Shown: positions 4,224 to 16,257 of the stretch, piece by piece
Position numbering within the stretch: the first letter of the stretch is position 1
How the letters are laid out: each line of letters starts with the position of its first letter
Origin: a virus
Lineage: Duplodnaviria; Heunggongvirae; Uroviricota; Caudoviricetes
Strand: one strand, 5' to 3'
DNA length: 16,257 bases
IMG/VR virus record: IMGVR_UViG_2939127364_000003
Program-made: the position numbers and the translations under genes
The notes under the pieces: generated by a model
Told to the model about the DNA's origin: nothing
Seen by the model: the letters and a program-made list of their open reading frames with translations, nothing else
Database searches by the model: none

Positions 4224-4415
4224 TTAAAGACCTGCCGGGATTTCGATATTATCCTGGTGAATAACTTTATCGACCGGGTAACAGTTACCGGGAATTTTCT
4301 GTTCGGTTGCTGCAGTCATACACTCCTGCATTGTCCTGTGAACACTGACTGCAATATCAACTGGCTCTCCGGAAACAAGAAAAACTGTCAGAACAAGCGC
4401 AAATGCTGAATTCAT
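4224..4415 (-). CDS. ydfD: YdfD-like small protein (63 aa; Qin YdfD is reported to cause lysis when overexpressed), start taken at internal Met MNSAF
   Basis: ORF with hydrophobic N-terminal segment (MNSAFALVLTVFLVSGEPV). Its ATG overlaps the dicB stop in an ATGA motif (4412-4415), suggesting translational coupling. Matches remembered YdfD. Confidence 0.65.
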   Translation of the reverse strand: MNSAFALVLTVFLVSGEPVDIAVSVHRTMQECMTAATEQKIPGNCYPVDKVIHQDNIEIPAGL

Positions 4416-4600
4416 TGTGCACATCCTTTTGGCATCAGACGTAAACGAGCCAGCATTGAAACAATGCATATTTTATTTAATAGCTCCCGTTCTTGTTTTC
4501 TCTTGTTAATGGCATCTTCAGTAAATACAGGGTTACTGATAGTGACACCAATTTCAAAACAACCTTCAGACGTATTAACGTTTGGTAATAACGTTTTCAT
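4412..4600 (-). CDS. dicB: DicB cell-division inhibitor (62 aa)
   Basis: Translation from the internal Met gives MKTLLPNVNTSEGCFEIGVTISNPVFTEDAINKRKQERELLNKICIVSMLARLRLMPKGCAQ, matching remembered DicB. GAGGA Shine-Dalgarno 9 nt upstream. Lies directly downstream of DicF. Confidence 0.85.
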   Translation of the reverse strand: MKTLLPNVNTSEGCFEIGVTISNPVFTEDAINKRKQERELLNKICIVSMLARLRLMPKGCAQ

Positions 4601-4770
4601 TATCGCGTCCTCAACAATGAATTTTGTGATGCAGTGCCTGGTGCCTCCAGGTGACGTTAACCAGTTAACAATTAACGCCGGATACAGAGAATCCACCCAT
4701 AACACTGTTTTTGGTTTTAACTGTTCCGCGTGCGCTTAGCCGCATTCACCGCATCACAAAATTCACTTTA

Positions 4771-4827
4771 AAAACGGCGGCAGAGCAGTCACGGAGTAAA
4801 ACTGATACCGCCAAACGTCACCAGAAA
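4771..4827 (-). ncRNA. dicF: DicF small regulatory RNA (ends approximate)
   Basis: Minus strand reads TTTCTGGTGACGTTTGGCGGTATCAGTTTTACTCCGTGACTGCTCTGCCGCCGTTTTT, matching remembered DicF including the 3' GC stem and T-run. Located between the upstream operon gene and dicB as in Qin. Confidence 0.8.
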
Positions 4828-5102
4828 ATTGATAACAGAGGGCGTTGCAGCGGGGTTGTCACTTAAGCGTATGGTCAACCTGACAACTCGGTGTCCTCAA
4901 CGGGGAAGGAATAACCCCGCCATACTTACCGCCGCGCCATTTCGCGGGTTGCCACAACCGGAAGCGCACGGTCGAATTAAATTTAACGACACCGTACAGT
5001 GAGACGAACTTCGCCGTGCGCTTTCGTGTTGTGTGCCTGCTTTTAACCACGTCAGGCGAGGTGGTATCCTTCTTATTCCGAATAACCAAGAAGGAAATCT
5101 AT

Positions 5103-5303
5103 ATGACTAAAGAAGAATTTGTCTCTTATATTTTTGATAAAACGGTTGAAATGTATGCCGCTACTTACGGGTCCTGTAATCCTCTGAATAAACCAGAGGG
5201 GAAAGATGATTTCGACAAAATTTACCGCTTCTTGGAGGACCGCTATATCAAAAGGTTAGAGGACGCAGGGATCAAATCCCCAGTGAAGTCACCATTGTCC
5301 TGA
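5103..5303 (+). CDS. Hypothetical 66-aa protein on the opposite strand inside the dicB operon
   Basis: ATG at 5103 preceded by AAGGAA with a 6-nt spacer. Translation MTKEEFVSYIFDKTVEMYAATYGSCNPLNKPEGKDDFDKIYRFLEDRYIKRLEDAGIKSPVKSPLS is of normal complexity. 3' end overlaps the convergent 5272-5649 gene by 32 nt. No family recognised. Confidence 0.4.
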   Translation: MTKEEFVSYIFDKTVEMYAATYGSCNPLNKPEGKDDFDKIYRFLEDRYIKRLEDAGIKSPVKSPLS

Positions 5304-5649
5304 GAACTTGCAGGACGTCATGATCGTAACTTCCATCCAAACCGCGACGGCAAATTGCTTCTCGTATTACCGGAAGCAGTTCGCTGGAAATCTCGGTGCA
5401 TATTTCACCTGCTAATACGCCTGGCTCAAGTGAGAATATTGGTGAACTTACGGTCTTGGTCTCGACAGTTTCAGAGTCAGTGCCAACATTATAAAGCTCA
5501 ACGAAAGCGGTCTTGATTTTCCGGGCCAGATCTTTTGCTGGCTCGCTTGCAATATCTTTCCCGATTTCTCGCAGCACAGAATGCAATGTATGAGCTGCTG
5601 TTTTCTGTACATCAGACGGTAAATCTTTAAATTCCATCGTCAGCCTCAT
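5272..5649 (-). CDS. Hypothetical protein (125 aa from ATG 5649, or 121 aa from ATG 5637) in the position of Qin ydfB/ydfC
   Basis: ATG at 5649 overlaps the ydfA-like stop (TGATG, 1-nt overlap). The alternative ATG at 5637 has a GAGG 6 nt upstream. Protein is of normal complexity and I do not recognise it. Confidence 0.6.
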   Translation of the reverse strand: MRLTMEFKDLPSDVQKTAAHTLHSVLREIGKDIASEPAKDLARKIKTAFVELYNVGTDSETVETKTVSSPIFSLEPGVLAGEICTEISSELLPVIREAICRRGLDGSYDHDVLQVLRTMVTSLGI

Positions 5650-5801
5650 CAGTCAGTGTTTCTGGCTAACCAGCAACGCGCGCCAGATTCGGTTTTAAAC
5701 GTTTTGCTTTTGGTATATGTCATCGCGGTGAACGTACCGTCCTGGTTGGGGAACACGCCACATACCAGAGATTCGCTGTTGCCAAGATCGATAGTATCCA
5801 T
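5649..5801 (-). CDS. ydfA: YdfA-like small protein (50 aa)
   Basis: Internal-Met translation MDTIDLGNSESLVCGVFPNQDGTFTAMTYTKSKTFKTESGARCWLARNTD matches remembered Qin YdfA. GAGG 7 nt upstream. First gene downstream of dicA on the same strand. Confidence 0.7.
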   Translation of the reverse strand: MDTIDLGNSESLVCGVFPNQDGTFTAMTYTKSKTFKTESGARCWLARNTD

Positions 5802-5877
5802 GCTGACCTCATTTCCCCTTAACGCCGGGGTAGCGGAACTGTTTGCTGAGAACACCGTGCGGTGTGTTGATGGAGGT

Positions 5878-5930
5878 AATTTAGTTTTCTCATTATTTTT
5901 CGTCAAGGTTTTTTGATGAGAAAACTCAAG
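5878..5930 (-). promoter_or_regulatory. Putative dicB-operon promoter with DicA-operator-like sites
   Basis: On the minus strand TTGACG (complement of 5901-5906), a 17-nt spacer, then TAAATT (complement of 5878-5883). Imperfect palindrome GATGAGAAAACTCAAG at 5915-5930 just upstream, and a further TGAGAAAACT half-site inside the spacer. Confidence 0.45.
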
Positions 5931-5993
5931 TATTGGCGCAAGATAAAGCCAATACATTGAAATGTAAGGCTTTAAAATTTTGTGAAGGGATGA

Positions 5994-6401
5994 TTATTGA
6001 TGCTTGTTGCGTTTGCGAGCCTCTAATAGCTCGGTGAACAGGCGATTAAAATTCTCAACGCGGGCGCGGAGTTCGCTGAGTTGTGCTTGTTGCTCTGATT
6101 TAGGAAGTGCGCGATACAAACGCAGCATCTCTAACTCATCTTCCGATAAGTCTAAGGCACTATCGAGTGAAACAGGGGGAGCTGGTGTTTTGTCCTCGTC
6201 GCCAAACAGTATCCAGGTTGGTGAACATTGCAATACCTCGGCGAGGCGATGCAAATTTTGCCCACGCGGGGCTGTATGGTCACTTTCCCATAATGAAATT
6301 GATGAGCCAGATACGCCAGCAGCTTTGCTTAAACCGTTTTGACTTAAGCCTACCTGCTTACGTCTTTCTCTAATGCGTTGACCTAAAGTTTTCTCGTTCA
6401 T
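5994..6401 (-). CDS. dicA: DicA-like HTH (XRE-family) repressor, 135 aa from internal Met MNEKTLGQ
   Basis: HTH region (QRIRERRKQVGLSQNGLSKAAGVSGSSISLWE) and C-terminal segment LQCSPTWILFGDEDK...RARVENFNRLFTELLEARKR match remembered DicA. Divergent from a Cro-like gene. Confidence 0.85.
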   Translation of the reverse strand: MNEKTLGQRIRERRKQVGLSQNGLSKAAGVSGSSISLWESDHTAPRGQNLHRLAEVLQCSPTWILFGDEDKTPAPPVSLDSALDLSEDELEMLRLYRALPKSEQQAQLSELRARVENFNRLFTELLEARKRNKHQ

Positions 6402-6478: not shown

Positions 6479-6706
6479 ATGTTTAAATCAGACGTAATTA
6501 ATTTTTACGGTACGAAAGCCAAAGTAGCGAAAGCTGCTGGCGTTGACCCATCTGCTGTTTCTCAATGGCAAGAGCTGGTTCCTGAAGGTCGCGCGATGCG
6601 TCTACAGGAGGCATCTGGCGGGGAGCTTCTGTATGATCCCAAGGTTTATGACGAATATCGTAAGACGAAGCGGGCGGGGCGGTTGAACAATGAAAATCAC
6701 TCCTGA
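6479..6706 (+). CDS. dicC: DicC-like Cro-type regulator (75 aa, start at internal ATG 6479)
   Basis: GGAGG at 6470-6474 four nt before ATG 6479. C-terminal VPEGRAMRLQEASGGELLYDPKVYDEYRKTKRAGRLNNENHS matches remembered DicC. Divergent from dicA. Confidence 0.8.
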   Translation: MFKSDVINFYGTKAKVAKAAGVDPSAVSQWQELVPEGRAMRLQEASGGELLYDPKVYDEYRKTKRAGRLNNENHS

Positions 6707-6948
6707 ACAGGCTCGTGAGGCTCTGGATGCCTGGATATGTCGACCAGGAATGACACAGGAGCAGGCGACGATATTAATCACTGAAGCATTCTGGGCTTTG
6801 AAAGAGCGCCCGAACATCGATGTTCAGCGTGTCACAGATGAAGGTGGCGCGGTTGATCAGCGAGCGCTTGGCGTTAATCGAGTGAAGATATTCGAACGCT
6901 GGAAGGCTATCGACACCAGGGATAAGCGTGAAAAGTTCACGGCGCTAG

Positions 6949-6971
<23 letters not shown>
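6690..6971 (+). CDS. YdfX-like hypothetical protein, 3' end interrupted by IS5 (native coding sequence ends at 6948; last 8 codons are IS5-derived)
   Basis: ORF overlaps the dicC 3' end by 17 nt. Reading frame runs into the IS5 left inverted repeat and stops at 6969-6971. If IS5 is removed the frame would continue about 6 codons into the sequence after 8144. Confidence 0.55.
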
Positions 6972-8143
<1,172 letters not shown>

Positions 8144-9244: not shown

Positions 9245-9501
9245 ATACAGCGAACTCCATTGGTTTAGTTGGATATTTACTGTGCTGGACAAAACGGTTT
9301 GCGGGGAAATCTTAGTTAAGTAGAATGACTGCGGGTGCTTGAGGCTATCTGCCTCGGGCACGAACACCAACGGCAGGTAGAGAAAAGCCCCAGTTAACAT
9401 TACGCGTCCTGCAAGACGCTTAACATTAATCTGAGGCCAATTTCATGCTAGACACATGTAGGTTAGCCTCTTACGTGCCGAAAGGCAAGGAGAAGCAGGC
9501 T

Positions 9502-9657
9502 ATGAAGCAGCAAAAGGCGATGTTAATCGCCCTGATCGTCATCTGTTTAACCGTCATAGTGACGGCACTGGTAACGAGGAAAGACCTCTGCGAGGTACGA
9601 ATCCGAACCGGCCAGACGGAGGTCGCTGTCTTCACAGCTTACGAACCTGAGGAGTAA
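9502..9657 (+). CDS. hok: Hok/Gef-family type I toxin (51 aa); a 70-aa in-frame upstream extension begins at 9445
   Basis: MKQQKAMLIALIVICLTVIVTALVTRKDLCEVRIRTGQTEVAVFTAYEPEE matches the Hok/Gef family (remembered HokD/RelF). AAGGAG 9 nt upstream. Structured 3' region and terminator follow. Confidence 0.85.
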   Translation: MKQQKAMLIALIVICLTVIVTALVTRKDLCEVRIRTGQTEVAVFTAYEPEE

Positions 9658-9876: not shown

Positions 9877-10933
9877 GGCTTTGTTGAATAAATCAGATTT
9901 CGGGTAAGTCTCCCCCGTAGCGGGTTGTGTTTTCAGGCAATACGCACGCTTTCAGGCATACCTGCTTTCGTCATTTTGTTCAGCGCTCGTACCAGGGCCA
10001 TAGCCTCCGCAACCTGACCATCGTAGTCACGCAGCGTCAGTGAACCCCCGAACAGCTGTTTTACCCGGTACATCGCCGTTTCCGCTATCGAGCGACGGTT
10101 GTAATCTGTTGTCCATTTCCACCGCGCATTACTCCCGGTCATTCGCTGATTAGCCACTGCACGGTTACGGTCTACATATTCACCGGGCCAGTAACCCGCA
10201 CCTTTTCGGGGAGGGATAAGCGCGCTGATTTTCTTACGCCGCAGTTCATCGTGACATAGCCGGGTATCGTAAGCGCCATCGGCGGCGGCTGACCTGATTT
10301 TCCGGTGGGTTTGCCGGATTAACCCGGGGAAGGCCTCTGAGTCCGTAACGTTGTTCAGCGACAGGTCAGCGCAGATGATTTCATGTGTTTTACTGTCAAC
10401 GGCGAGATGCAGCTTACGCCAGATACGGCGGCGTTCCTGGCCATGCTTTTTGACTTTCCACTCGCCTTCACCGAAGACCTTCAGCCCGGTGGAATCAATT
10501 ACCAGGTGTGCGATTTCACCCCGGGTGGGCGTTTTGAAACTGACATTAACCGACTTTGCCCGCCTGCTGACACAGCTGTAATCCGGGCAGCGTAGCGGAA
10601 CGTTCATCAGAGAAAAAATGGAATCAATAAAGCCCTGCGCAGCCCGCAGGGTCAGCCTGAATACGCGTTTAATGACCAGCACAGTAGTGATGGCAAGGTC
10701 AGAATAGCGCTGAGGTCTGCCTCGTGAAGAAGGTGTTGCTGACTCATACCAGGCCTGAATAGCTTCATCATCCAGCCAGAAAGTTATGGAGCCACGGTTG
10801 ATGAGGGCTTTATTGTAGGTGGGCCAGTTGGTGATTTTGAACTTTTGCTTTGCCACGGAACGGTCTGCGTTGTCGGGAAGATACGTGATCTGATCCTTCA
10901 ACTCAGCAAAAGTTCGATTTATTCAACAAAGCC
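9877..10933 (-). mobile_element. IS903-family insertion sequence (IS5 family), complete at 1057 bp, no target-site duplication
   Basis: 18-bp terminal inverted repeats GGCTTTGTTGAATAAATC (9877-9894) and GATTTATTCAACAAAGCC (10916-10933). Length is 1057 bp. The 9-bp flanks ATTCTGATG and CATCTAACC do not match. Confidence 0.9.
9933..10901 (-). CDS. IS903-family DDE transposase (322-aa ORF)
   Basis: [91 protein letters not shown]... matches remembered IS903/IS102 transposase. Enclosed by the matching inverted repeats. Confidence 0.9.
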
Positions 10934-10962: not shown

Positions 10963-12660
10963 TTGACTGCGGATATAACATTAACGCCGAAAGATATTGG
11001 TACTTTAAATTCAGTAACGATGTCTTTCTCTGGCGGGGCTGGGTGGTTCAAACTGGCTACGGTTACCATGCCACAAGCGAGTTCCATCGTTTACATCGCA
11101 TTGATTGGTGGCGCTGGTTACAACGTCGGTTCCCCACATCAGGCAGGCATTTCAGAACTGGTTCTACGAGCAGGCAATGGAAACCCCAAAGGAATTACCG
11201 GGGCTTTGTGGAAGCGTACAGCCGTCGGATTAACGAATTTCGCCTGGATCAACACATCCGGCGATACATATGATATTTACGTTGAGATTGGCAATTATGC
11301 GACGAGTGTAAATATCCATTGGGATTGTACTGCAAATGCGTCAGTTTCTGTTTATACCTCGCCAACATATTCAGCGAGTAAGCCTTCCAGCGTTACCTAT
11401 GGTGTTGTTTATACGATGTATAGCTCACATCAGAAACCTACACCATCAGATATTGGAGCACTGCCAACAACCGGAGGAACAGTTTCAGGTCCGTTGTCTG
11501 TTACAGGTGGATTAACTGGTTCATTGAATGGTAATGCAAGTACAGCCACGAAATTGCAGACGGCAAGATCTATCGGTGGAGTTGTTTTCGACGGTTCTGC
11601 AAATATTAACCTTCCAGGTGTAAACACTACGGGTAATCAGAACACCACTGGTAATGCTGCAACTGCTACAAAACTTCAGACTGCAAGAAAAATATCCGGT
11701 GTTCCATTTGATGGTTCTACTGATATCACTTTAACCGCCGCGCATGTGGCTGCTTTTGCCAGAAGGGCAACGGATACATATGCCGATGCGGATGGGGGCG
11801 TTCCCTGGAATGCCGAATCAGGCGCTTATAAGGTCACCCGCTCTGGCGACAGCTATATTCTGGTTAACTTCTATACCGGAGTCGGAAGTTGCCGGACCTT
11901 GCAGATGAAGGCGCATTACAGAAATGGTGGTCTGTTCTACCGTTCTTCAAGAGACGGTTATGGTTTTGAGGAAGACTGGGCAGAAGTTTATACCTCGAAA
12001 AATCTTCCACCAGAAAGCTACCCAGTCGGCGCACCAATCCCGTGGCCATCAGATACCGTTCCGTCTGGTTATGCCCTGATGCAGGGGCAGACTTTTGACA
12101 AATCTGCCTACCCGAAACTTGCAGCCGCTTATCCGTCAGGCGTGATCCCTGATATGCGTGGCTGGACGATTAAGGGCAAGCCCGCCAGTGGTCGTGCCGT
12201 ATTGTCTCAGGAACAGGACGGCATAAAATCGCATACCCACAGCGCCAGCGCATCCAGTACTGATTTGGGGACGAAAACCACATCGTCGTTTGATTACGGC
12301 ACTAAATCCACGAATAACACTGGTGCGCATACCCATAGTGTTAGCGGTACGGCTGCTTCAGCCGGTGCACATACCCATTCGATGGCATTTGTTTCAGGTG
12401 GTTCCAGTGGTGCTCCGGGAAGTGGATCACCTGATTATTCTAAATACAGTGTTAACACTTCTTCTGCAGGCGCTCATACGCACTCTGTATCGGGTACTGC
12501 TGCAAGCGCAGGTGCACACGCACATACTGTAGGTATTGGTGCGCATACGCACTCGGTTGCGATTGGTTCACATGGACACACCATCACCGTTAACGCTGCT
12601 GGTAACGCGGAAAACACCGTCAAAAACATCGCATTTAACTATATTGTGAGGCTTGCATAA
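10963..12660 (+). CDS. stf: Side tail fibre protein, 5'-truncated by the IS903 element (565-aa ORF with TTG as first codon)
   Basis: Two tandem phage-tail-fibre repeats ([26 protein letters not shown] and [26 protein letters not shown]), repeated GAHTHS His-x-His motifs and C-terminal [22 protein letters not shown] typical of lambda Stf / T4 gp37-type tips. The frame is open back through the IS boundary and there is no credible native start. Confidence 0.8.
11531..11730 (+). repeat. Tandem coding repeat (phage tail fibre repeat) within stf
   Basis: Two copies beginning GGTAATGC..., each encoding GNA(S/A)TATKLQTAR...FDGS..., about 120 bp apart. Confidence 0.55.
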
Positions 12661-13241
12661 TGGCATTCAGAATGAGTGAACAAGCACGGACCATAAAAAT
12701 TTATAATCTGCTGTCCGGAACTAATGAATTTATTGGTGAAGGTGATGCATATATTCCGCCTCATACAGGTCTGCCAGCAAACAGTACCGACATTGCACCG
12801 CCAGATATTCCAGCTGGCTTCGTGGCTGTTTTCAACAGTGATGAGTTATCGTGGCATCTCGTTGAAGATCATCGGGGTAAAACGGTTTATGACGTGGCTT
12901 CCGGCGACGCGTTATTTATTTCTGAACTCGGCTCATTACCGGAAAATGTCACCTGGTTATCCCCGGAAGGGGAGTTTCAGAAGTGGAACGGCACAGCCTG
13001 GGTGAAAGATGCAGAAGCAGAAAAACTATTCCGGATCCGGGAGGCGGAAGAAACAAAAAACAGCCTGATGCAGGCAGCGAATGAGCATATTGCGCCACTT
13101 CAGGATGCTGTAGATCTGGAAATCGCAACGGAGGAAGAAAACTCGTTGCTGGAAGCCTGGAAAAAGTATCGGGTGTTGCTGAACCGTGTTAATACAACAA
13201 CTGCACCGGATATTGAATGGCCAGTAGCACCTATAGGGTAA
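12660..13241 (+). CDS. tfa: Tail fibre assembly protein Tfa (193 aa)
   Basis: ATG overlaps the stf stop (TAATG). C-terminal [31 protein letters not shown] is the conserved Tfa end of lambdoid and Mu-like tail-fibre chaperones. Confidence 0.85.
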
Positions 13242-14973: not shown

Positions 14974-16257
14974 ATGGATTTCCAGTTATATTCGCTCGGC
15001 GCAGCGTTAGTGTTTCATGAAATATTTTTTCCTGAATCATCAACGGCAATGGCGTTAATTCTGGCAATGGGAACCTACGGTGCAGGTTATGTGGCGCGTA
15101 TTGTCGGAGCATTTATTTTCGGCAAAATGGGCGACAGAATAGGGCGTAAAAAAGTGCTCTTTATTACCATCACCATGATGGGGATCTGTACCACCTTAAT
15201 TGGTGTGTTACCGACCTATGCACAGATTGGTGTTTTTGCACCCATCTTGCTGGTGACGTTGCGTATTATTCAGGGGTTGGGTGCAGGTGCGGAAATTTCC
15301 GGTGCCGGTACGATGCTGGCGGAATATGCGCCAAAAGGTAAGCGCGGAATTATCTCCTCATTTGTGGCTATGGGAACTAACTGCGGAACCTTGAGCGCAA
15401 CGGCAATCTGGGCCTTTATGTTCTTCATTCTCAGTAAAGAGGAACTGCTGGCGTGGGGATGGCGTATACCGTTCCTGGCGAGCGTTGTCGTGATGGTCTT
15501 TGCTATCTGGTTGCGTATGAATCTGAAAGAAAGCCCGGTCTTTGAGAAGGTTAACGACAGTAACCAACCGACAGCAAAACCTGCACCTGCTGGTAGCATG
15601 TTCCAGAGCAAATCCTTCTGGCTGGCAACAGGGCTGCGTTTTGGTCAGGCGGGTAACTCCGGGTTAATTCAGACTTTCCTTGCAGGCTATTTAGTGCAGA
15701 CGTTATTGTTTAACAAAGCAATTCCAACAGATGCATTGATGATCAGTTCGATTCTCGGCTTTATGACCATTCCGTTCCTTGGTTGGTTATCCGATAAAAT
15801 TGGTCGCCGGATCCCGTATATTATTATGAATACCTCCGCGATTGTGCTGGCATGGCCAATGCTTTCTATCATTGTAGATAAAAGCTATGCCCCGAGCACC
15901 ATTATGGTTGCACTGATTGTGATTCATAACTGTGCGGTGCTGGGATTATTTGCTCTGGAAAACATTACCATGGCAGAAATGTTCGGCTGTAAAAACCGCT
16001 TTACCCGGATGGCTATTTCTAAAGAAATTGGTGGTCTTATCGCTTCCGGTTTTGGTCCTATCCTGGCGGGTATTTTCTGCACCATGACGGAATCCTGGTA
16101 TCCGATCGCCATTATGATCATGGCATATTCAGTGATTGGTTTAATCTCTGCGCTGAAAATGCCAGAGGTGAAAGACCGTGATTTAAGTGCGCTGGAAGAC
16201 GCTGCGGAAGATCAACCGCGTGTTGTAAGAGCTGCGCAACCTTCCAGAAGTCTGTAA
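14974..16257 (+). CDS. ydfJ: MFS metabolite:H+ symporter-family transporter YdfJ, N-terminally truncated (427-aa ORF)
   Basis: Multi-helix membrane protein with the MHS signature region (GKMGDRIGRKKVLFITI ... RIIQGLGAGAEISGAGTMLAEYAPKGKRG). The ORF begins inside what aligns to helix 1 of ProP-type transporters, with an in-frame stop 3 nt upstream. Matches the remembered 427-aa K-12 YdfJ next to Qin. Confidence 0.85.
   Translation: MDFQLYSLGAALVFHEIFFPESSTAMALILAMGTYGAGYVARIVGAFIFGKMGDRIGRKKVLFITITMMGICTTLIGVLPTYAQIGVFAPILLVTLRIIQGLGAGAEISGAGTMLAEYAPKGKRGIISSFVAMGTNCGTLSATAIWAFMFFILSKEELLAWGWRIPFLASVVVMVFAIWLRMNLKESPVFEKVNDSNQPTAKPAPAGSMFQSKSFWLATGLRFGQAGNSGLIQTFLAGYLVQTLLFNKAIPTDALMISSILGFMTIPFLGWLSDKIGRRIPYIIMNTSAIVLAWPMLSIIVDKSYAPSTIMVALIVIHNCAVLGLFALENITMAEMFGCKNRFTRMAISKEIGGLIASGFGPILAGIFCTMTESWYPIAIMIMAYSVIGLISALKMPEVKDRDLSALEDAAEDQPRVVRAAQPSRSL

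Follow-up and report, generated by a model that had tools for sequence, protein, structure and literature searches.

What a gene on the opposite strand is doing inside a repressor-controlled early operon is the question raised by a short stretch of the Caudoviricetes record IMGVR_UViG_2939127364_000003 (IMG/VR; Duplodnaviria, Heunggongvirae, Uroviricota). The window, by which we mean the whole 16,257-nucleotide stretch of DNA that was analysed, is a Qin-type lambdoid prophage. Between its ydfA homologue and the gene for the small RNA (sRNA) DicF, it encodes a 121-aa protein in line with the operon and a 66-aa protein on the other strand. A first-pass annotation of this DNA had placed the pair in the slot that holds ydfB and ydfC in the Qin prophage of Escherichia coli K-12, and the alignment to K-12 Qin agrees, as homology stops right after the ydfA stop codon and restarts near 4985, with about 650 bp of the window substituting for ydfB, ydfC and part of the spacer. 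The 66-aa plus-strand open reading frame (ORF), the 121–125-aa minus-strand ORF and the 32-nt 3′ overlap that it described are all present in the sequence. Our best explanation, to which we give a probability of roughly 45%, is that this cassette is a mobile, convergent two-gene unit occupying the position that sieB holds in the Rac prophage, in which the 66-aa protein would be a lysogeny-phase effector and the C-terminal domain (C-domain) of the 121-aa protein its early-operon antidote, the two arranged as an excludon-type switch. The parts of the cassette are as follows.

5103–5303, plus strand: the 66-aa gene (ATG 5103, stop 5301–5303), antisense to the dicBF-type early operon; RefSeq coding sequence WP_000159335.1; PHROG 34441.
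5272–5637, minus strand: the 121-aa gene (stop 5272–5274, ATG 5635–5637; MEFKDL...), second gene of the DicA-repressed operon, after ydfA; PHROG 33007.
5482–5637, minus strand: the N-terminal domain (N-domain), residues 1–52 of the 121-aa protein, a two-helix module common to PHROGs 9419, 1363, 2151 and 6937.
5416–5481, minus strand: the linker, residues 53–74, with relaxed constraint in most comparisons.
5275–5415, minus strand: the C-domain, residues 75–121 (47 aa), the portion that always accompanies the 66-aa gene.
5272–5303, both strands: the dual-coding 3′ overlap (32 nt), whose phase, read from the sequence, sets the wobble position of either strand against the second codon position of the other.
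5046–5065, plus strand: hairpin 1, ACCACGTCAGGCGAGGTGGT, conserved upstream of the antisense gene and common to several loci with other cargo.
5067–5095, plus strand: hairpin 2, TCCTTCTT / AAGAAGGA, whose 3′ arm is the Shine-Dalgarno (SD) sequence (AAGGA, 5091–5095).

The 66-aa ORF is a real protein-coding gene under purifying selection. Its homologues, 89–51% identical, retain 65–68 codons. Ratios of nonsynonymous to synonymous substitution rates (dN/dS) were calculated by the Nei-Gojobori method over eight distinct DNA variants, the plus ORF being scored over codons 1–55, which face no minus-strand ORF in the window; for this ORF they lie between 0.06 and 0.26, also in pairs with saturated synonymous sites. 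It is the combination of these ratios with same-length homologues down to about 50% identity that marks the ORF as more than chance. To the alternative, that this is a chance ORF conserved only through lying opposite conserved operon RNA, we give almost no credence: it is small, and a consensus scan found no promoter for it, but about 170 of its 201 nt face no minus-strand ORF, the dN/dS values contradict such an origin, and both length and start are conserved, with in-frame stops just upstream in the relatives L003 and L004. Those stops are also the reason that we take ATG 5103 as the true start, and they rule out a 95-aa GTG-extended version of the ORF (start 5016). The first-pass annotation had named conservation in related prophages beforehand as a test of the pair, and both ORFs pass it, with diverged homologues and purifying selection on each. 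An AlphaFold2 (AF2) model of the 66-aa protein is a helical hairpin (helices 3–22 and 31–54; mean predicted local distance difference test score, pLDDT, 81.5), and the sequence has an isoelectric point (pI) of 5.3, a grand average of hydropathy of −0.68 and two amphipathic helices, which together predict a soluble, acidic product.

Two loci illustrate exchange at the 5′ end of this gene. At L179:952–1185 (minus strand), a member of the 66-aa family has its first five codons exchanged (MEAEKF versus MTNEEF) and uses a leader otherwise found with the unrelated 72-aa cargo of L076; recombination therefore happens right at the start codon. In E. coli YJ6 (H28, NZ_AP023235.1:2514825-2515367), where a single hypothetical protein is annotated, the match to the cassette starts at window position 5108, the leader and start codon of the 66-aa gene being replaced.

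Three segments are fused in the minus-strand gene: the widespread N-domain of 52 aa, a linker under relaxed constraint, and the C-domain of 47 aa. Elsewhere the N-domain forms stand-alone proteins of about 50–65 aa or is joined to unrelated C-termini (families P0038–P0041), and all of its homologues start with MEF or MEY, that is, at the 121-aa start. An alternative 125-aa start (ATG 5647–5649) was dropped as not conserved, L065 having no in-frame upstream ATG at all. The first-pass annotation described translational coupling to ydfA; it is this unconserved start alone that overlaps the ydfA stop codon (TGATG), the conserved start lying 11 nt past that stop and having its own GAGG. Constraint follows the modules, with dN/dS of 0.09–0.36 in the N-domain (pairs with at least 10 synonymous differences) and mostly 0.4–1.1 over residues 53–74 (range 0.12–1.12). 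In the C-domain, the proportion of nonsynonymous differences is about 0.2 against a saturated synonymous proportion of 0.83–0.92 in comparison with L004, and dN/dS is 0.14 for L003 and L071. The AF2 model shows the N-domain as a helical hairpin, residues 53–87 as disordered (pLDDT <50), and the C-domain as two low-confidence helices. As this gene is the first of the pL operon in L003 and L072, an N-like antiterminator role was considered and rejected, for the N-terminus, MEFKDLPSDVQK, is acidic (N-domain pI 6.7) and lacks an Arg-rich motif, and Pfam gives no match.

The C-domain and the 66-aa gene form the invariant unit: in five lineages, representing three genomic contexts, they are co-inherited in a convergent, overlapping arrangement. 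In the first context, that of the window, this core is fused to the N-domain after ydfA in a DicA-type prophage. In the second it lies directly after an S24-type repressor (L003, L071, L072 and L178); L072 and L011 carry the N-domain-fused form after an S24 repressor, and in L003, L071, L178 and L179 the C-domain is found on a 124–131-aa protein with a different N-part. In the third, seen in the Cedecea contigs L004 and L005, the C-domain is encoded by itself from an AGGAGA-ATG of its own, in a pR-like operon that has cro on one side of it and a cII-like gene on the other. This last ORF (MGKEQVILTGELTIEIAGEVLPVIREAIRRKGLEGDYDH...; L004:3568–3897 and L005:3554–3883, both minus strand) had been missed by the gene caller; it is without the usual stop and reads antisense across the entire 66-aa gene to give 109 aa. 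Around this core, the partner fused at the N-terminus, the 5′ leader, the type of repressor and the kind of operon (pL-like versus pR-like) are thus all exchanged. Homology among the C-domains is backed by BLASTP E-values of 5e-7 and 6e-11, and the divergence of C-domain and 66-aa partner is correlated (r = 0.88). By a motif check, the C-domain lies opposite 135 of the 137 intact 66-aa ORFs in the fetched loci, a highly redundant set; the two that fail, L067 and L140, have F for L at one position but do carry the C-domain, which leaves the rule without a true exception. A further diverged pair is probably present in L160 (P0047), whose contig ends within the partner, and a metagenome scan returned no further genomic context for the cassette. 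The conserved unit thus differs from the pair described in the first-pass annotation: it consists of the 66-aa gene and the last 47 residues of the minus-strand protein, whereas residues 1–52 belong to a distinct module with a wide distribution.

Could the two genes nevertheless be functionally unrelated, an early-operon protein and an autonomous antisense moron held together because their 3′ overlap blocks clean recombination? The overlap is 32, 38 or 56 nt across lineages (197 nt in L004, where the minus-strand stop is lost), the boundaries of phage mosaicism often fall at gene ends, and in the loci that we call type E the cargo of this slot has no dedicated C-domain opposite it. The 11 overlap codons (residues 111–121; 33 nt) are identical in the window, L011, L067 and L072, with one change in L065, and this near invariance fits a phase in which each wobble base is the other strand's second codon position. 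Against this, the overlap takes in just about 11 of the 47 codons of the C-domain, yet all of the domain is kept under purifying selection; in L004 and L005 it has its own start codon and SD after loss of the N-terminal partner; and the N-part and leader have been exchanged repeatedly right up to the edges of the core. We therefore regard two unrelated genes as possible but doubtful.

The leader of the 66-aa gene suggests that its expression is restrained. The strong ribosome-binding site noted in the first-pass annotation is real in that AAGGA at 5091–5095 stands 7 nt before ATG 5103, but folding predictions bury it in the stem of a conserved hairpin. In predicted foldings the SD pairing probability is at least 0.96 in 7 of 7 leaders of the 66-aa family, a value attained by just 1–8 of 100 shuffles of the upstream sequence. 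Between the window and L003, two stem positions of hairpin 2 are altered on both sides, a compensatory change, and in L004 the arms are altogether different. Where pairing is imperfect, the plus strand has G.U and the minus strand would have A.C. Together with the compensated stem, this favors a plus-strand RNA whose 5′ end lies upstream of 5067.

These observations bring up a reading in which the plus-strand unit acts mainly as RNA: an unterminated transcript, continuing opposite the 121-aa gene, then ydfA and the promoter of the operon, would damp leaky dicBF expression by transcriptional interference, with the peptide secondary. The sequestered SD and the convergent layout would suit it, as would the absence of any plus-strand terminator in 4700–6000 and the listing of sieB-ydaF as an excludon (PMC12288877). 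It does not explain purifying selection on the amino-acid sequence of the 66-aa protein across saturated synonymous divergence, and we consider it very improbable.

The sequence just upstream has a wider distribution. Hairpin 1 and an alternative stem both lie in the stretch 5000–5071, whose conservation extends over different cassettes and over prophages of both the Qin and the Rac type; more than 1500 E. coli genomes have a homologous stretch. The alternative stem reads GCCTG...CAGGC in the window and GCCCGG...CCGGGC in Rac, a compensatory change. The stretch could serve as the plus-strand leader or, on the minus strand, as an element for processing or structure in the DicF/KilS precursor. 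Judged by eye, hairpin 1 shows neither a boxA-boxB arrangement nor a U-tract, and readings of it as a nut/put-like site or as a terminator on either strand were rejected.

The 66-aa gene occupies a position equivalent to that of the superinfection-exclusion gene sieB in Rac. There the order is racR, ydaG, ydaF (DUF1391, as ydfA), sieB (opposite strand, with a 4-nt overlap of ydaF), the kilS sRNA gene, and kilR. In both prophages, then, an opposite-strand gene lies between a DUF1391 gene (ydaF/ydfA) and genes for an sRNA and an FtsZ inhibitor (kilS-kilR / DicF-dicB), and converges on and overlaps the operon gene upstream. A stem similar to hairpin 1 is found upstream of sieB in Rac, and part of the sequence there resembles window ~5020–5065 in our own reading, which is not an alignment. 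The sieB- or moron-like layout that the first-pass annotation remarked on is thereby upheld as positional equivalence. The products themselves show no sequence similarity, SieB being a 162-aa protein with a visibly hydrophobic N-terminal half, unlike the soluble, acidic 66-aa protein. From K-12 RNA sequencing, sieB-ydaF has been listed as an excludon (PMC12288877).

In other relatives the same slot holds other cargo, on the opposite strand, in the same orientation and all of unknown function: a 114-aa Cys-rich protein in L007, and products of 79, 72, 81, 63 and 73 aa opposite N-domain proteins of differing C-terminal type. In the type E loci, the antisense cargo lies opposite N-domain proteins that have no extra C-domain. 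Serratia L077 carries tandem antisense cargo, 4600–4791 (63 aa, Cys-rich) and 4269–4514 (81 aa), both on the minus strand opposite a 97-aa N-domain protein, and so the slot can hold more than one moron. At L006:2606–2926 (plus strand; E. coli 504838, NZ_CP025856.1), the antisense slot behind hairpin 1 contains a 106-aa ORF that lacks annotation; its several hydrophobic segments indicate a multi-pass membrane protein, and a perfect 10-bp hairpin (ATCCTTAAAA/TTTTAAGGAT) lies over its SD. RefSeq has a ydfB pseudogene on the other strand instead. The ORF appears to be a genuine moron for a membrane protein, similar in kind to sieB. The ydfC-dicF spacer of K-12 Qin holds no credible antisense gene.

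This cargo also bears on the polarity of the pair. The roles could in principle be reversed, the variable C-domain on an N-domain being a host-directed early effector like Kil or DicB and the 66-aa protein a cognate antidote that protects the lysogen against leaky operon expression. A conserved N-module with variable C-termini, each facing a different small gene, does resemble polymorphic toxin-immunity layouts, and the dicBF operon is rich in host-toxic products (DicF, DicB and YdfD; PMC5069750). We nevertheless think this improbable. Type E cargo would then consist of orphan immunity genes, the occupant of the slot in Rac, sieB, is an effector and not an antidote, and the C-domain amounts to merely two short helices. 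For the same reasons, namely that antisense cargo occurs without partner domains in type E and that sieB, the one characterised occupant of the slot, is an effector, we favor a scheme in which the effector is the 66-aa protein and the antidote is the C-domain; type E fits a cargo that is the primary payload and a C-domain that is optional.

Searches for function left both proteins uncharacterised. They are not unannotated, as the first-pass annotation, which recognised neither, might suggest: no function is assigned to them, but RefSeq has both as hypothetical proteins (WP_000159335.1 and WP_023281935.1). Neither matches Pfam, NCBIfam or PADLOC, and in PHROGs each matches over its full length a family of unknown function (34441 for the 66-aa protein, 1–66/66, 1.5e-50; 33007 for the 121-aa protein, 1–121/121, 4.1e-82). 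A sequence search of solved structures in the PDB gave no significant match, with weak matches of archaeal histones to the N-domain (E 0.046 and 0.13). Fold searches with the 66-aa model against the PDB and BFVD returned generic helical hairpins only (E > 0.8), and the 121-aa model against BFVD returned only stand-alone N-domain proteins of unknown function. A HMMER search of the C-domain against 1.84 billion representatives recovered its own family and repeat proteins (P0042, TPR-like; P0044, Cys-rich), the latter judged spurious. No papers were found in the literature under the accession and PHROG identifiers of the cassette.

Several established classes were considered as well. A type I or II toxin–antitoxin system was rejected, as the genes are convergent, the products are not hydrophobic (both are predicted to be small, acidic and soluble) and no toxin–antitoxin family matches. 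So was membership of the SieB family, given no sequence homology and no hydrophobic N-terminal half in the 66-aa protein; the antisense early-left location upstream of kil-type genes does match. Neither protein contains a HEPN domain, and thus a HEPN RNase effector like that of Tha was dropped. The cassette is moron-like in being present or absent between conserved flanks in close relatives, in lying opposite to the surrounding operon and in being interchangeable cargo; it differs from lambdoid morons in having no terminator of its own (4700–6000, both strands, including the junction of the convergent genes), no recognisable promoter of its own in the consensus scan, and a linked partner domain on the operon strand. 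The pair also has the layout of a noncontiguous operon, in that an opposite-strand gene interrupts the operon and overlaps it by 32 nt of ORF.

How might such a unit work? In the lysogen, the DicA-like repressor would silence the operon and leave the antisense 66-aa gene free to be transcribed, its translation throttled by the hairpin that hides the ribosome-binding site. The soluble helical product could then act by binding a host or phage protein, and its position points most likely to exclusion or host modulation, a role suggested by analogy. Upon derepression, DicF and dicB are reached only if the operon transcript reads through the antisense of the 66-aa gene (5103–5303); polymerase collision and full-length antisense RNA would shut that gene off, and the operon would yield the C-domain, which we propose binds and neutralises residual 66-aa protein and so spares the prophage's own lytic program. 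An antisense gene in a repressor-controlled early operon would, in this arrangement, be expressible only while the operon is quiet and be overrun on firing. For the C-domain, which is always encoded opposite the 66-aa gene and always belongs to an early operon, the simplest role is one required at the moment of switching.

A number of observations weigh against this effector–antidote switch. None of the searches above yielded a homology or fold match indicating defence, toxicity or other activity, and the AF2 model of the C-domain is of low confidence. A transcription start serving the plus-strand gene was the second test named in the first-pass annotation, and the consensus scan of the upstream sequence found no sigma-70-like promoter for this gene. 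Inspection of the leaders by eye gave a single candidate in the DNA that they share, an extended −10 (TGGTATCCT); it would place the mRNA start inside hairpin 2, which conflicts with conservation of that hairpin. The overlap by itself would be expected to cause some co-inheritance, and the sample comprises only about eight distinct sequence variants, all from Enterobacterales. Lastly, IS1 sits in the 66-aa gene after codons 15–22 in three viral contigs (L068:3972–4315; L069:4001–4051; L070:1957–2007), so the gene is dispensable in those genomes.

A worked precedent is found in Staphylococcus aureus prophages, where the defence gene tha has a small overlapping antisense gene encoding its inhibitor, Ith, and where the effector–inhibitor relation has been shown (PMC11087260). 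There, as here, a small antisense gene overlaps an operon at the border between lysogeny and lysis, and an effector is paired with an inhibitor, which in our case is proposed; two expression states made mutually exclusive by antisense transcription are likewise proposed here. The proteins are unrelated, and the polarity is reversed: Tha/Ith pairs a lysogenic cI operon with an antisense inhibitor, whereas the window pairs a repressed early lytic operon with an antisense, presumed lysogeny-phase factor.

Phage P22, according to what Ranade and Poteete reportedly showed in 1993, protects itself from its own SieB through Esc. Unlike Esc, which is an in-frame truncated product, the antidote proposed here is a separate domain encoded on the other strand. 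To our knowledge, there are few worked examples of prophage self-protection from their own defences, namely SieB/Esc, BstA/aba and Tha/Ith, and both prophage exclusion or defence genes and the avoidance of self-targeting on induction are active topics. A broader proposal, which we put forward as speculative and rather unlikely, is that across Enterobacterales the sieB slot, in lambdoid prophages of the Rac and Qin types and their relatives, serves as a hotspot for interchangeable antisense lysogeny-phase effectors, at least some with a cognate early antidote carried as a swappable C-terminal domain on an N-domain protein or as a stand-alone mini-ORF. The pair of 66-aa protein and C-domain would then be the first member to be recognised in a family of modules for self-immunity, and would be the counterpart of Tha/Ith in Gram-negative bacteria, with the polarity reversed. 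New here are the two-module minus-strand gene, the strictly linked core of C-domain and 66-aa gene, the sequestered ribosome-binding site and the cargo hotspot. The last of these went unannotated within the much-studied dicBF and kilR operons and includes at least one unannotated multi-pass membrane ORF, and the two-module nature of the 121-aa hypothetical protein bears on the annotation of related PHROG families.

The cassette is present in 391 of 5426 complete E. coli genomes (7%; at least 99% identity), including E. coli B C3029, and in mEp460_ev081, an evolved derivative of the lambdoid phage mEp460; diverged forms occur in Salmonella, Enterobacter and Cedecea records. It is missing from K-12. 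At about 0.6 kb it is a compact candidate, and its presence in E. coli B and absence from K-12 would make gain- and loss-of-function work straightforward.

The surrounding prophage shares its backbone with the K-12 Qin dicBF operon (ydfA-ydfB-ydfC-DicF-dicB-ydfD), including the repressor pair, ydfA, DicF, dicB and ydfD (PMC5069750). Unlike the window, K-12 has ydfB and ydfC in place of the cassette and has no hairpin 1, and neither YdfB nor YdfC resembles the 121-aa protein by eye. The operon features that flank the cassette are listed below.

4775–4826, minus strand: DicF sRNA (Rfam match, 72.5 bits), downstream member of the same operon.
5649–5801, minus strand: ydfA homologue (DUF1391), first operon gene (RefSeq annotation and Pfam).
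5878–5906, minus strand: promoter-like site TTGACG-17-TAAATT, where the dicB operon promoter would be.
5994–6401, minus strand: DicA-like helix-turn-helix (HTH) repressor (RefSeq annotation and Pfam).

An element matching the promoter-like site is kept in L076, and Rfam in permissive mode returned nothing besides DicF over 4700–5700. The same DNA occurs, identical, in E. coli WP8-S17-ESBL-05, where leftward on the minus strand the DicA-like HTH repressor is followed by DUF1391, two hypothetical proteins, dicB, ydfD, an exonuclease, an excisionase and an integrase, adjoining rspB. In the window, Pfam confirms the repressor, its Cro-like partner, DUF1391 and the integrase, and two insertion sequence (IS) transposases have gutted the element. 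One of them, an IS5-type DDE transposase (338 aa; 6981–7997), comes directly after a 93-aa ORF (6690–6971). The intact relative L001 has a 173-aa YdaT-family gene and replication genes at this point, and because the transposase occupies their place the prophage in the window is defective. The second IS transposase lies at 9933–10901, beyond a sok antitoxin RNA of the hokD locus (9333–9507). A tail-fibre gene and its assembly gene span 10963–13241, with an Rfam match to the IS009 RNA at 13003–13201 within the assembly gene. A major facilitator superfamily transporter gene starts at 14974, and host DNA probably resumes somewhere past 13241.

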